From IMG/VR virus record IMGVR_UViG_3300030376_004261, positions 1 through 54,852 of that record: DNA of 54,852 bases, one strand, 5' to 3'. The translations under genes were made by a program, and so were the position numbers. This document shows, in pieces, positions 1-54,852 of this stretch. The notes under the pieces are model-generated. The model was not told the DNA's origin. It did not search any database and saw nothing but the letters and a program-made list of their open reading frames with translations. Origin of the DNA: a virus (lineage: Duplodnaviria > Caudoviricetes). Position 1 is the stretch's first letter. Each line of letters begins with the position of its first letter.

Positions 1-70
1 GGGCGGTCTGCTGCAGCGGGAGGTACTGCTGAGAGCATCCGCTTGCGCTCTGAGCAAAATTCGGGCAGCC

Positions 71-323
71 ATACGTTGTGCTCCCCCTCTTTTTCATACG
101 CTTGCCCAAAACTAGAATGCTACAGTGTGTGTGCGTTTGCTGTATTACTAAAGGCATACGTCGAAGTGTATATTATAGCTCTATATAGTACTATAGTGCT
201 ATGTAGTATATACTGTATAGCACTTTCTTCTTTTATTGCTCTATTAAGCTTAGACTTAACATAAGCTTATAATATTGCTGTAAGGCCTAACGTATAGCTC
301 TATAGTATACGTTATGCTCCCCC
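71..323. repeat. Non-coding palindrome cluster bracketed by a 17-bp near-perfect direct repeat; possible terminus, origin or leader region
   Basis: ATACGTTRTGCTCCCCC at 71-87 and 307-323; palindromes or inverted repeats at 184-195, 195-224, 245-252, 261-270, 288-296/306-314; no credible ORF. Confidence 0.6.
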
Positions 324-396
324 GCGATTTTTAACGCTATGCTGGATGTAGTTTATAGCAGTGCTGTGTGCTGGGGTGAGAAAAACCGCTGGTACA

Positions 397-408
397 AGGC
401 TTTATATA
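397..408 (+). promoter_or_regulatory. Archaeal TATA-type promoter AGGCTTTATATA
   Basis: Identical 12-mer at 11395-11406; both lie upstream of gene runs. Confidence 0.7.
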
Positions 409-473
409 ATCTCAGCGTATTGTATTTTTTACTGTGCTCCTACTAAAAAATGGAGTGCTGGAAGTGAAAGAAA

Positions 474-860
474 ATGAAGCAAAACATAGATATAGATGCT
501 CTATCTGAAAAGCAATTGCTCTTATTAGAGAAGTTGCTGCAAAAGATGGGCAAGTCAGCAAAACCCCGAAGAAAAACCGGCAAGAAAACCTGCCGTGATT
601 TGAAGAAGCGATTCAATCCGCTAAGACCCCATCCCAGCGATGTTATACGCTGTATTGCATTTGAAAGAGCACAAGGTAATCCTAATGCTCAATCAGATGG
701 TTACAAGCGAGCAAAATCTGAAATGGTCGAGCGAATCAAAGAGTCCGAGCAAACAATGCGCCGTATGCATACTAACCTTGCTGAGGGTAGATTATACCAC
801 GGCACTACTGATATGAAAAATCGCTGGATAGGAACCAAACAGCTGGATGTGAAAATATGA
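474..860 (+). CDS. Hypothetical basic early protein
   Basis: 128 aa, first ORF after the promoter; ATGA overlap with next gene. Confidence 0.7.
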   Translation: MKQNIDIDALSEKQLLLLEKLLQKMGKSAKPRRKTGKKTCRDLKKRFNPLRPHPSDVIRCIAFERAQGNPNAQSDGYKRAKSEMVERIKESEQTMRRMHTNLAEGRLYHGTTDMKNRWIGTKQLDVKI

Positions 861-51402: not shown

Positions 51403-53007
51403 CTACCTTTTACGAGACCAAGAAGGCGTTCTTCCCCTTCTTAATCTTTCTTTAGGTTTCCAACCTGATTGAGACATTGCATTTTGAAAAGACCTGCCAG
51501 ATTGGTCTCTAACTCTACTAGGACTCATTTTAGGGCCACGTCCGGGAAATGAACCGGGGTCTCTCCAAAGCTCTGCACAAAACGCTCTTGGTTTTTTTAC
51601 ATTTTGAAGACCCTCATAATTTCTAAGATGTTGTTTTGCATTAGCAACACAAGCTGCCATAAATGCCCGCATACCTCTTCCAGTCCTTCCTGTCCTTGGA
51701 GCCTTACTAATTTTATTAATGCCTTTCAAAACTTTACACTTTTTTATACCTGCAATGTCCCATATGTGTTTGTCAATTTTTCCTAGTATGTCTGTTACAC
51801 TACTTGTACTCCACATCTTACAAGACCAATACCTTGCCTTATGTTTAGGTCCGGGACTATCACAATTGTGTCTTGCTCTAAAGTTTCTACGTTTGTCAGG
51901 ACTATCACGCTTGATGTCCATCTTAGGGTCGCCAAACTTTACTTGAACTATATTTCCTTTATCGTTTTTTACGTAAACCCCAAATTTCTTGTTCTCACCT
52001 TTTAACCGAAAAGGCTTGTTAAGATTCACTTTACTACCTTGATACTCTGCTTTTAACAATCTTGATTCATCATGTTCTTCTATAACTTCAAATGGAAACT
52101 CTTCTACTGCACCTACGTGCTCTTCGTAATCTCCTAACATTAATACAGGACCATCTTTGTATGCCATCCAATGATGTCCCTTTGGTGCTTTAACTTTTAC
52201 AGAAGCTACAGCTTTTCCTAAAGGCACGCAGTTAGGAACTTTCTTGCCTCTTAGCATCTTAGTTCCTATCATCTCATAACCTGCTTCACAAGGTTTCTTT
52301 TTTATCATGTCAAGAATGCTATCTAGTTCTTCATTCATTTTACTAAATCTTCTAGCTTGTATTGCTCGCTCTTGATTTACTGCGCCTGCGCGCGTAGAAT
52401 GACAACCTAATAATCTTTTATCTTTTTTAGCAAATAGACAATACTTCTTTCCTCTACGTTCTATTATCTTTTCTAACATTCCCTCTACTTCATCTAATGT
52501 TACTTGCTTTGTCACCTTGATAGGTTCTTGTTCTTTTGCTGCCGCTACTTGTGTAACGGTAGCTTCTGGGTTAGCTGGTCTGTTGCCAACCCATGATACG
52601 GACCAAAGAGACAACTCGGAGATGTTGTTGTGGCAGACGTCTCCTTCGCAGACCTTCTCTTGTTTTTCGGCTTCCCCTCTAATAGAGGAGCCACCCTTGT
52701 CACCGTAAATCTTCATCTCTTCCCACACCCTGTCATGCATCGGAAGCTTGTTGTGTACTCCAACTCTAATCTTGACTTTACCGTCTTTAACTTTATATGC
52801 AAGAGGAAGACCCACTGGCATCTCCTCATGCTTGTATGAATAAACACCGTATTTCATATAGAAATCCATGGACTCTTTAATTGTGTCAGTACCTATCTTG
52901 TCGTTCTGTTTGTCAATAATAGGTGAAGAAATATATGTTTCTAAAATTCTCTCGTTATACCACTCTGGTCGATAGACCTGCCACTTAGTATTCTGAGCAT
53001 CTGCCAC
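51403..53007 (-). CDS. Prohead maturation protease with multiple C-terminal accessory domains
   Basis: IDKQND, YKH...PVG, GGSSIRG, LWSVSWV..PANPEA; C-terminal KFGDP...RRNFRARHNC...ARYWSC; GTG start. Confidence 0.85.
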   Translation of the reverse strand: MADAQNTKWQVYRPEWYNERILETYISSPIIDKQNDKIGTDTIKESMDFYMKYGVYSYKHEEMPVGLPLAYKVKDGKVKIRVGVHNKLPMHDRVWEEMKIYGDKGGSSIRGEAEKQEKVCEGDVCHNNISELSLWSVSWVGNRPANPEATVTQVAAAKEQEPIKVTKQVTLDEVEGMLEKIIERRGKKYCLFAKKDKRLLGCHSTRAGAVNQERAIQARRFSKMNEELDSILDMIKKKPCEAGYEMIGTKMLRGKKVPNCVPLGKAVASVKVKAPKGHHWMAYKDGPVLMLGDYEEHVGAVEEFPFEVIEEHDESRLLKAEYQGSKVNLNKPFRLKGENKKFGVYVKNDKGNIVQVKFGDPKMDIKRDSPDKRRNFRARHNCDSPGPKHKARYWSCKMWSTSSVTDILGKIDKHIWDIAGIKKCKVLKGINKISKAPRTGRTGRGMRAFMAACVANAKQHLRNYEGLQNVKKPRAFCAELWRDPGSFPGRGPKMSPSRVRDQSGRSFQNAMSQSGWKPKERLRRGRTPSWSRKR

Positions 53008-53026
53008 GGCCTAATATTAACTACGT

Positions 53027-53054
53027 GTATATAAACAATTAACTTTTTCCGGAA
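53027..53054 (-). promoter_or_regulatory. Promoter TTCCGGAA-N12-TTATATAC for the protease gene
   Basis: TATA 53027-34; palindrome 53047-54; start codon about 20 nt downstream of the TATA box, so probably leaderless. Confidence 0.65.
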
Positions 53055-53602
53055 GCCTTCCTTCTAAGGCGATTTCCTTCTAACATTATCTGACTATTTA
53101 TCTTTGACATATTTTCTAGTAAAGCATCTCTGCAAGCAAACGTTCCCTCTGCAAATGGTTGATTTTTAAATATGTTTTTTGCAAACCACCAATAACTATC
53201 TACTGAAGGATATTTGATTGCGTAATCTTTTAACCTTTCAGTCATATTGTGATTCCTAGAACCAAATCCAGTTCCAGATACAGATGGCATTGGCGAATAA
53301 CCACCAAACTCTATAATCTTTGCAGCAGGATGGTCAGACACTAATTGAAAAACTGCCTTGTTACCAAAATTGCCTATCATAGGCTCTATGCTTTTACCAA
53401 CACTTCCCGTAACATAATTCCAACGTTCATATACTTTTTGTTCAGCAGCATCTCTAATCATAACTGCTGTATTAGCTAATGCATTTTCAAAAATAGTTTG
53501 CCAATTTTTTTCTTTTTTCCAAAAGTTAATTGAATTAGTAATTTGTTCTAAACCTGTAACTTTAAAAGGGCCGGGTTGTCTTTTTGGTCCGAATCTTTTC
53601 AT
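53039..53602 (-). CDS. HK97 gp10-like morphogenesis protein
   Basis: VTGLEQI...TGSVGKSI...AKIIEFG pattern. Confidence 0.65.
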   Translation of the reverse strand: MKRFGPKRQPGPFKVTGLEQITNSINFWKKEKNWQTIFENALANTAVMIRDAAEQKVYERWNYVTGSVGKSIEPMIGNFGNKAVFQLVSDHPAAKIIEFGGYSPMPSVSGTGFGSRNHNMTERLKDYAIKYPSVDSYWWFAKNIFKNQPFAEGTFACRDALLENMSKINSQIMLEGNRLRRKASGKS

Positions 53603-53832
53603 TTGTAAGATGCTACTTCTTCAGGTGATGCATCTCCGTACTTTTCTTTCCACTTTCTATTTACTTCCTGTGCAGCCTTCTGTCTCATTAACATCCTACT
53701 ATTCTTGTTGTACTGTCTCATGTATTCAGCTTTGTTATTCCAAGCCCTGTCATGCTCACACTCTTCACACAATCCATTAGACATTAATCTAACTCTGACT
53801 TCTCCTGCTAAACATTTCTTACATTGTTTCAT
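53599..53832 (-). CDS. Zinc-finger protein
   Basis: CKKC ... GLCEEC; coupled on both sides. Confidence 0.7.
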   Translation of the reverse strand: MKQCKKCLAGEVRVRLMSNGLCEECEHDRAWNNKAEYMRQYNKNSRMLMRQKAAQEVNRKWKEKYGDASPEEVASYK

Positions 53833-54852
53833 GGTTTTAATGCTCCTACTTCTGGTTTAGCCTCCTCAGGCATAGTAACTTGAGGTTTGTCTGGAAGCAT
53901 TAAATTACCATCTTTATCTAATGTAGCTTCTATTCCTACCTTATTTAATACTGTAATTATATTTGCCTTTTGTAACATATTAGCTAATGCTTGTTGCTCG
54001 TTCTTTGTATTAATATCTGCAAACTTTACTTTCCAAGTTTGAATTCCCATCAACTTCATCAATGGTTTCAAAAATCCCATTTCCAAACATTGTTGAGTTT
54101 CTAACACAGTTCTGTCAAACAAAGATATCTGCTCTCCTTCTGCATTCAACCCACCTACGCCTGCTGTGCTACCTGTTACTATCGGCATCACTCCATACGA
54201 TGCGTTTATGTCGTTGTTAATGCGTTCCATGTAAGGCAAAGCCATCAACTCATCCATGTTAGGCATAACAGGTACAAACTTTGCCTGTCCGCTTGAGCCT
54301 TCACCCCTACTACTTATAATAGGAACAAAGTTTGGATTACGTCTTGTCTCCTCTGCAATGTATTCCCCTAACCTATTCAATGATTCCTCATCATGACCGG
54401 GAATATCCAAGAAACCCTTAGGTGGCCTCTCTAGTTTGTAAATCTTGTTTTGGAAGTTCTCAATGGCGAGCGCTGTTTCGATTTTCTTAGAAAGACCTAT
54501 CCATACAATCTGGCATTCGCACTGTATTTATTAAAATGAATTATCTCATCCCTTGCAAAAGGAATCTTATCTTCATCCTGACCCATGTCATAAAAATATG
54601 CCATAGGTTCAGCTTCAAACCCACCTTCTCCTAACTCTCCTTTCTCCAAAGGCTGTCTGGTTATTATATCAAAATATTCATCGTTTTTAAACTTACCATA
54701 ATCATCTACATGAAATCTCATCTGCTTTGCATCTTCTACCCAAAGCTCCTTGACTATCTTATCTTCACTACCCTGTATCCTGTCGTAAACAACACTTACC
54801 CAACAATCATCAAATACCTCTACTTGTCGTATCATTGCCTTAAAAAATTCCG
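53829..54852 (-). CDS. Portal protein, 5' part outside window, frame broken near 54497-54502
   Basis: FDD, FARDEIIHF...LYG in one frame; PKGFL, INASYGVMP, LKPL in another; upstream of protease and MCP. Confidence 0.85.

Follow-up and report, generated by a model that had tools for sequence, protein, structure and literature searches.

We analysed the IMG/VR virus record IMGVR_UViG_3300030376_004261, a linear sequence of 54,852 bases from a tailed virus (Caudoviricetes); below, the window means this whole record. Its GC content is 36.8%, slightly above the roughly 35% given in a preliminary description made from the letters alone, and CheckV scores it as 78% complete. The tetranucleotide CATG is missing from the first 48,391 bases and present at a normal frequency in the remainder. 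This switch is real in the sequence and lies far beyond chance. It is probable, in our assessment, that the window is a chimeric metagenome contig of two co-occurring marine tailed viruses, joined in a fibre gene that both share, and the join would then be artificial rather than a rare but real recombinant. The preliminary description had named a chimeric assembly as the last of three options. It is the better explanation of why both parts stand on one contig, on three grounds: the same backbone is linked differently in another assembly, there is a ~2.3-fold depth step with a summed shared stretch, and no relative of the backbone carries this head.

CATG is avoided in one part of the window

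A recount gives exactly the 25 CATG sites described before, all of them at 48392-54709 (48392, 49084, 49642, 50028, 50229 ... 54709). In 1-48391, where the recount might have turned up many sites, it finds 0, while base composition predicts 162 and a second-order Markov model 163. In 48392-54852 the 25 sites compare with 21 (base composition) or 29 (Markov) expected.

We also used a codon-aware expectation, where the protein sequence is held constant and codons are sampled from usage. By this measure the 38 listed genes left of 46485 have 0 CATG against 75-89 expected, and the head genes have 22 against 21.6, which is no sign of CATG loss. CATG is under-represented by the composition, Markov and codon-aware measures alike. 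The avoidance is reached at synonymous sites, for instance by CAC instead of CAT ahead of G. One case had been pointed out earlier and is found as described: within a fibre protein of 785 amino acids (aa) the peptide NHALTV occurs twice, starting AAT CAT GCA at residues 150-155, with the CATG at 48392, and AAT CAC GCA at residues 483-488 (47382-47399).

Two further motifs had been reported as avoided on both sides of the switch, and so they are. GATC has 0 sites on each side of 48392, against 146.7 and 13.5 expected, and CCWGG has 0 on each side, against ~30 and ~5 (~35 in total). When all 4- and 6-base palindromes of the window are tested, strong avoidance is restricted to CATG and GATC; CATG, GATC and CCWGG are all significantly under-represented.

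The place of the switch is less sharply defined by these numbers than its existence. Below 48392 the gene of the 785-aa protein is expected to hold just 4.1 (Markov) or 4.75 (codon-aware) CATG sites, so the count places the change only within 46.5-48.39 kb. The earlier suggestion of a breakpoint in the fibre gene holds, by comparison with another contig (see below), but the count alone cannot fix it at 48392.

Genes are on the + strand from 1 to 25.3 kb and on the - strand from 54.85 kb down to 25.6 kb. The order along the - strand is portal, protease/scaffold-like protein, major capsid protein (MCP), two small proteins, 785-aa fibre, 1318-aa fibre, and tail genes with the tape measure protein.

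The backbone belongs to a lineage without CATG, GATC and CCWGG

The larger part of the window, below called the backbone and assigned to lineage X, is represented by these features:

1-42532, both strands: lineage X backbone, collinear with the genome G006, annotated from Pfam and PHROG
14238-16466, + strand: PolB, 88% identical to the G006 PolB
33853-36177, - strand: tape measure protein, among the tail genes

A search of IMG/VR with PolB finds one relative, G006, which has 75,525 bases and a CheckV completeness of 100%; the same database gave no relatives in a search with the tape measure protein. Window positions 53-42532 are collinear with positions 296-46757 of G006; the nucleotide identity is ~70-83%, and the proteins are 25-95% identical. 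For the window itself the CheckV value (54,852 bases = 78%) implies a genome of ~70 kb.

The backbone at 1-42532 has 0 CATG against 80.6 + 40.0 expected, and it has no GATC or CCWGG. In the whole of G006 there are 0 CATG against 238 expected, 0 GATC against 203 and 0 CCWGG against 57. An MCP, scaffold, portal and large terminase of its own are encoded in G006 at 64.4-70.1 kb, and this head and packaging region (64387-70123) likewise has 0 CATG against 14.5 expected. No homologue of the window's MCP was detected in G006. Among 14 IMG/VR loci that share an X-type tail gene, an MCP is present in four, always of the G006 type, and the MCP type of the window is found in 0 of the 14. GATC and CCWGG are at zero in all 14 of these broader relatives.

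The absence of CATG from lineage X is genuine and old; it has been kept across the ~25% nucleotide divergence between G006 and the window backbone. To judge from these comparisons, its persistence in the diverged G006 indicates sustained selection rather than chance or recent common descent. Restriction enzymes would be the selective agent behind the loss of the motifs.

The head module belongs to another family

The remainder of the window, assigned to lineage Y, contains the following:

48447-54852, - strand: lineage Y head module, 82-92% nucleotide identity to nine IMG/VR contigs, PHROG matches
between the fibre gene and the MCP, - strand: 134-aa and 113-aa proteins of the head module
49667-50857, - strand: MCP, PHROG major head protein match
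between the MCP and the protease/scaffold-like gene, - strand: 164-aa protein of the head module
51403-53007, - strand: 534-aa protease/scaffold-like protein
53829-54410 and 54497-54852, - strand: portal fragments, PHROG portal match
54410-54500, - strand: break in the portal gene, 13 bases missing at ~54499-54500, frame shifted

The nine contigs match at 48.85-54.85 kb, and the MCP of the window is 86-93% identical to those of its close Y relatives. CATG is as frequent here as expected, with 24 sites in 48447-54852 against 27.4 (Markov). In contigs of the Y family the head genes also have CATG at expectation, and GATC and CCWGG are absent in most of them. From the CheckV values of Y contigs (37,320 bases = 100%, 17,706 = 48%, 16,752 = 46%, 8,696 = 24%, 7,964 = 22%) the genomes of this family should be ~36-37 kb long.

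Backbone and head therefore derive from different virus families, X and Y, as their nearest relatives differ and G006 lacks the MCP type of the window. The comparison of MCP and portal with tape measure protein and PolB, proposed earlier as a check, gives the conflict that was looked for: PolB and the tape measure protein group with the CATG-free 75.5-kb virus, MCP and portal with the CATG-bearing ~37-kb family.

The portal gene is intact in relatives (~466 aa), and an alignment with the relatives G001, G002 and G003 shows the 13-base gap in the window. Either the assembly is wrong at this point or the variant is defective. In Logan contigs of two public runs (described below) the 13 bases are carried by 5.71 of 19.8 depth in run X1 and by 14.7 of 14.7 in run X5.

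The two parts meet in a fibre gene

Between backbone and head lie two fibre genes, and the change of ancestry falls within the one next to the head:

42529-46485, - strand: 1318-aa fibre protein, Pfam Laminin_G_3 (E 4.6e-67, three stretches)
46488-48845, - strand: 785-aa repeat-rich (beta-helix-like) fibre protein, intact open reading frame (ORF), internal repeats, weak G8-domain match only
34617-47001: identical to metagenome contig L031 (blastn 12385/12385)
47002-47171: 170 bases without outside support, the gap between L031 and L028
47172-48085: identical to the CATG-free X-lineage contig L028 (914/914 bases)
48086-48446: mosaic crossover zone, 32 mismatches to L028 in three patches
48392-48395: first CATG of the window, His151-Ala152, CAT GCA; the X-lineage version has TAT GCA (Tyr)

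The three patches of the crossover zone are 48086-48119, 48270-48309 and 48373-48446, with identical blocks of 150 and 63 bases between them. Past 48446 there is no nucleotide similarity of the window to L028. At the protein level the first ~113-121 residues of the 785-aa protein are unlike the L028 version and the remainder is 94-100% identical (94% from residue 114). In IMG/VR the 785-aa protein has only one relative, the distant contig L004. The identical stretch at 47172-48085 is the probable repeat between the two genomes that let the assembler pass from one to the other.

The identical backbone is linked elsewhere in another assembly

L031 and L028 are consecutively numbered pieces of one metagenome scaffold. 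L031 ends at window position 47001 and L028 starts at 47172. Past the mosaic zone L028 continues for a further 2682 bases that are unlike the window, with 0 CATG against 8.4 expected. The continuation codes first for the C-terminal part of a protein homologous to the giant 2019-aa protein of G006 (E 8e-16) and then for a 131-aa protein that is 44% identical to its homologue, the 134-aa protein of the window. This is a neighbourhood of the G006 type, which means that the identical backbone is joined elsewhere to a G006-like upstream region and not to a Y-type head.

The junction of the window was not recovered independently in other assemblies, and the sole other assembly of the identical backbone links elsewhere. 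In the same way, a Y-specific 42-mer across the first CATG is found in 0 other IMG/VR contigs when the window's own record is excluded.

Contig depths differ between the parts

Depths were taken from four public marine runs (X1, X3, X5 and X7), as Logan contigs only, where depth is one figure per contig and a poor ranking measure. X5 has no cover at 49240-51487 and X7 nearly none at 49240-50925, which is no evidence of absence there. For X1 and X3 the depths are:

backbone contig(s): X1 14.7 (one 23.9-kb contig); X3 25.6-27
exact contigs over the 1318-aa gene: X1 16.2-18.1 (42970-46431, at the level of the backbone); X3 26-35.3
only contig over 47005-47125: X1 22.7; X3 38.5
L028-type unitig 47884-48346: X1 18.2; X3 several variants
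window-type letter at 48291: X1 4.6; X3 not seen
exact head contigs: X1 5.95-7.32; X3 12.7-13.5

For exact contigs, the coverage thus differs between the parts: in X1 the backbone side stands at 14.7-18.1 and the head at 5.95-7.32, and in X3 the two are at 25.6-35.3 and 12.7-13.5. The 38.5 at 47005-47125 in X3 is close to the backbone and head depths added together. In X1 the depth of 22.7 at 47005-47125 is about the sum of the L028-type (18.2) and window-type (4.6) depths, and below ~46.9 kb it is back to 16-18. We described X1 by a simple model where the head depth is w + y, the backbone x + w and the shared stretch x + y + w, w being the truly linked form. Solved for X1, the linked form w is near 0.

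Two details of this region are recorded here. At 47005-47125, which lies inside the gap between L031 and L028, the only contig in all four runs differs from the window at 9 places. Further, a joint from 49132 to 43375 with 24 other letters between was seen at depth 11 in X1, 3.3 in X3 and 6.74 in X7, and a 60-base motif at 43327-43389 is conserved in G001. The joint probably reflects a different mosaic order in some related virus.

CATG-poor fibre genes in CATG-normal genomes

The fibre genes of the relatives differ in their CATG content from the genes around them. In five Y-family loci the fibre ORFs have 13 CATG against 59.6 expected (codon-aware), while the other ORFs have 136 against 103.3. 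In four X-family loci, representing about two lineages, the lectin fibre has 11 against 45.3 and the neighbouring genes are at expectation. Among the homologues of the 785-aa and 1318-aa genes, one example has a single CATG where 15.4 are expected and another has none where 10.2 are expected (codon-aware). The loci of CATG-poor fibre genes are:

L048: 2852-6307
L047: 5004-9767
L044: 1377-5396
L042: 1931-6058
L036: 7142-12346
L035: 9289-13217

In the window, the 1318-aa gene has 0 CATG against 12.2 expected, and the N-terminal 586 aa of its product are 58% identical to a fibre of G001. For G001 we also considered the tail genes as CATG-depleted, given 12 sites against 36.4 (Markov), but this was dropped as the codon-aware expectation is 17.5 for the 10 sites counted. 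Clear depletion in G001 is left only in three fibre genes, 6 against 21.4.

The Y-family metagenome contig L035 (13218 bases) avoids neither GATC (49 sites) nor CCWGG (9 sites) and has normal CATG in its head genes, all three motifs occurring in its head region, yet its fibre genes have 1 CATG against 8.4 expected. The avoidances of the three motifs are consequently separable among the relatives.

In family Y, where the fibre genes are CATG-poor in 5 of 5 independent contigs, a CATG step where the fibre cassette begins is therefore normal. Fibre segments seem to have moved out of CATG-avoiding lineages into other lineages. This is unlike the picture in the preliminary description, where the head module enters a CATG-free genome.

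A separate observation on the 1318-aa protein is that its N-terminal lectin-like domain matches the Pfam family of the clostridial neurotoxin receptor-binding domain (E 1e-13). This is a fold resemblance typical of carbohydrate-binding modules and indicates no toxin.

A probable chimeric contig and its alternatives

If the window is a chimera, its origin can be pictured as follows. Virus X, of a ~70-75 kb PolB-encoding lineage purged of CATG, GATC and CCWGG genome-wide, would supply ~1-48.1 kb. Virus Y, of the ~37-kb family whose head and packaging genes have the expected CATG and no GATC or CCWGG, would supply 48.45-54.85 kb. Both families have a homologous fibre cassette between head and tail genes, made up of a ~130-aa protein, a beta-helix fibre and a lectin-domain fibre, and they would share a near-identical stretch of the beta-helix fibre of at least ~0.9-1.4 kb. 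This stretch probably stems from a genuine and recent horizontal exchange. The assembler may have entered it from the head of Y and left along the more abundant path of X, as the shared stretch exceeds what short-read inserts resolve.

Several properties expected of a chimera are seen in the window. A near-identical segment is present at the join (914, 150 and 63 bases beside Y-type patches), and the two parts have their nearest relatives in separate genome types, between which these modules are not otherwise shared. We also count in favour of it the poor quality of the Y end, with a portal lacking 13 bases that relatives carry, and the head genes that show no selection on CATG.

Some points weigh against a chimera. 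The depths are contig depths without raw reads, and the sample from which the window comes may not be among the four runs. A bridging contig is possible beyond the Logan pieces listed. X3 has several fibre variants, and the sum of depths there may be a coincidence. The contig at 47005-47125 with its 9 differences stands in all four runs in the place of the window's own sequence. The ratio of head to backbone depth is alike in two samples (~0.40-0.45 in X1, ~0.5 in X3); a similar ratio would also be expected from physical linkage in a part of the population, and both samples are from one study. For family Y the size of ~37 kb comes from CheckV estimates, with no terminal repeat to confirm it. 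The junction leaves the 785-aa ORF unbroken and the gene order unchanged. A real recombinant is mechanistically possible, as fibre exchange between the X and Y families is evident. Finally, chimeras made up <5% of large viral contigs in benchmarks (PMC5610896), and on that figure the prior for a chimera is low.

The main alternative is a real and very recent recombinant, where a CATG-free 70-75-kb virus has replaced its head genes, presumably with the packaging genes, by a module of the 37-kb family. One crossover would be at 48086-48446 and the second beyond the end of the contig, and CATG would not yet be purged for want of time. We regard this as unlikely, though several points speak for it. 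Apart from the intact ORF across the junction and the similar depth ratios, the order of the cassette is the same in both families, the identical blocks of 63, 150 and 914 bases imply that the fibre genes recombine or have a recent common source, and the CATG-poor fibre genes in all five Y contigs attest gene flow between CATG-avoiding and other lineages.

Against such a recombinant, the backbone depth of 14.7 in X1 is fully covered by the non-window variant (18.2), and below ~46.9 kb the depth drops from 22.7 to 16-18. The link of the identical backbone to a G006-like region and the absence of the combination from the 14 relatives point in the same direction. A recombinant genome would probably measure ~60 kb or more and have to fit a capsid whose close relatives package ~37 kb, an argument built on the headful limits to packaged genome size. 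Its Y-type head-completion proteins would need to fit an X-type tail, and the tail genes of X and G001 show no similarity at E 1e-5. Its 25 or more CATG sites would expose it fully to the restriction under which the other 48 kb took shape, and its portal gene is frameshifted. The idea of a foreign head module, raised in the preliminary description, is accordingly upheld for the ancestry of the two parts and for the switch within the 785-aa gene, while their link on one contig is better explained as a chimera.

A staged entry of the DNA, also raised earlier, is rejected and has hardly any probability left. Here the CATG-free part would enter first and disarm restriction, so that the late-entering head module needs no avoidance, as in phage T5. 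Besides the T5 precedent, it could be noted in its favour that the left end shared with G006, in a GC-rich repeat region, might be a physical terminus. However, G006 has the same backbone and is free of CATG over its full 75.5 kb, head and packaging genes included. Moreover, the CATG-bearing part is the module of another family and not a diverged head module of the virus itself, and a CATG-free zone that takes up 88% of the contig or more would invert the proportions of T5.

As improbable is a step intrinsic to the fibre and tail genes, caused by amino acid composition or a gene-specific constraint and unrelated to restriction or origins: fibre proteins do contain little His, Met, Cys and Trp (4-6%, where other genes have 6-11%) and the Markov model did overstate the depletion in the G001 tail genes, but a compositional cause is rejected by the codon-aware counts over the 38 non-head genes, which include replication enzymes of ordinary composition, by G006 with its zero across every gene class, and by relatives of the same genes that carry CATG at expectation.

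Other features of the backbone lineage

The early region of the backbone has further annotated genes:

8580-9470, + strand: N6/N4 DNA methylase, Pfam E 3.8e-54, 86% identity in G006
9531-10034, + strand: RecU-like nuclease (Pfam/PHROG)
17358-23409 region, + strand: glycosyltransferases (Pfam/PHROG)
23444-25312, + strand: class II ribonucleotide reductase (Pfam/PHROG)

Compared with solved structures, the DNA methylase matches only generic beta-class N6/N4 methylases, and no specificity for CATG, GATC or CCWGG is indicated. Its target in the virus's own DNA cannot be any of the three, as these sites are absent there. The glycosyltransferase-like genes are at 17358-18716, 21722-22564 and 22561-23409, with a Methyltransf_24-like gene at 21231-21725. 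The cluster may serve the modification of DNA, virion or host surface.

The starts of the window and G006 nearly coincide (window 53 = G006 296). Window 1-60 and G006 1-300 are GC-rich stretches in which TGCTGC-like words recur, the GC content of the genome being 36%. Three readings of this shared left end are possible: a physical end of the genome, a site of packaging, or a place where assemblies repeatedly break. The two ends of G006 show no terminal repeat. Between its tail and head genes (46753-64287) G006 has four very large ORFs of 1219, 1641, 793 and 2019 aa, and the 2019-aa protein has repeats carrying a GxVGIGTxxP...LHV word.

The nearest relatives of MCP, PolB, G006 terminase and ribonucleotide reductase do not name a host. 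The nearest cultured relatives of the window's MCP are haloarchaeal tailed viruses (28%). PolB is nearest to Salinibacter and cyanophage polymerases (~22%) and the large terminase of G006 to Bacillus and Halogranum viruses (~22%). For the ribonucleotide reductase, the closest cellular sequences share ~50% identity and come from scattered taxa, mostly Patescibacteria.

Discussion

The purge of a motif from a whole genome is a classical signature of long exposure to restriction enzymes that cut these palindromes. The prototypes for CATG, GATC and CCWGG are NlaIII, MboI/DpnII and EcoRII, respectively. The window backbone resembles other cases of restriction-site avoidance in phages in that it lacks all three sites and shares this with G006 at ~75% nucleotide identity. 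It differs in that the avoidance is only partial across the window, which is best read as two genomes in one contig.

With the chimeric viral metagenome contigs of PMC5610896, the window has in common that its parts belong to different relatives, that a segment is shared at the join, and that there is a depth step and a conflicting link. Unlike in these chimeras, its probable parents are of two families and not strains of one virus; head, tail and replication modules of the two are unrelated, with only the fibre cassette in common, and it was flagged by an oligonucleotide signature and by no assembly metric.

The T5 segment that enters in the first step is said to lack EcoRI sites, as Davison and Brunel reportedly found in 1979. 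Genes of this segment act before the rest of the genome enters, and T5 resists EcoRI and EcoRV (PMC10644984). The likeness to the window is only in the idea of a genome part that needs no site avoidance. Unlike in T5, the full-length relative G006 shows no such partition, and neither an injection-stop signal nor a pre-early module was identified.

Were the window one genome, either a very fresh head swap or a new partial shielding from restriction would be needed. If a head swap were true, the same capsid module might suit genomes of widely differing size, and viruses subject to different restriction regimes might exchange head modules. As the evidence points to two joined viruses, the record is unsuitable as a genome for work on gene content, host prediction or module evolution. 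A sliding profile of oligonucleotide avoidance here exposed a probable chimera that completeness tools had scored as a 78% complete single virus. A simple means to flag chimeric viral contigs is thus a modest by-product.

For the viruses themselves two points are of more general interest. The first is an abundant marine ~75-kb PolB lineage without CATG, GATC and CCWGG, which suggests a group of hosts in which three or more restriction specificities are active.

The second concerns the fibres. The exchange of distal tail-fibre parts among unrelated phages is familiar from the mosaicism of T-even phages, lambda, Mu and P2. The 785-aa protein follows this pattern, with an N-terminal part of ~113-121 residues that is specific for the family and an exchangeable distal part that is 94-100% identical. 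Unlike in those phages, the donor lineage can here be deduced from the restriction-site signature. Near-identical fibre segments in two unrelated families bring a CATG-free signature into CATG-normal genomes, and these CATG-poor fibre segments in two marine families are a better supported novel element than a head swap. Since the fibre genes are CATG-poor where the genomes around them are CATG-normal, the restriction-site signature traces the direction of host-range gene flow.

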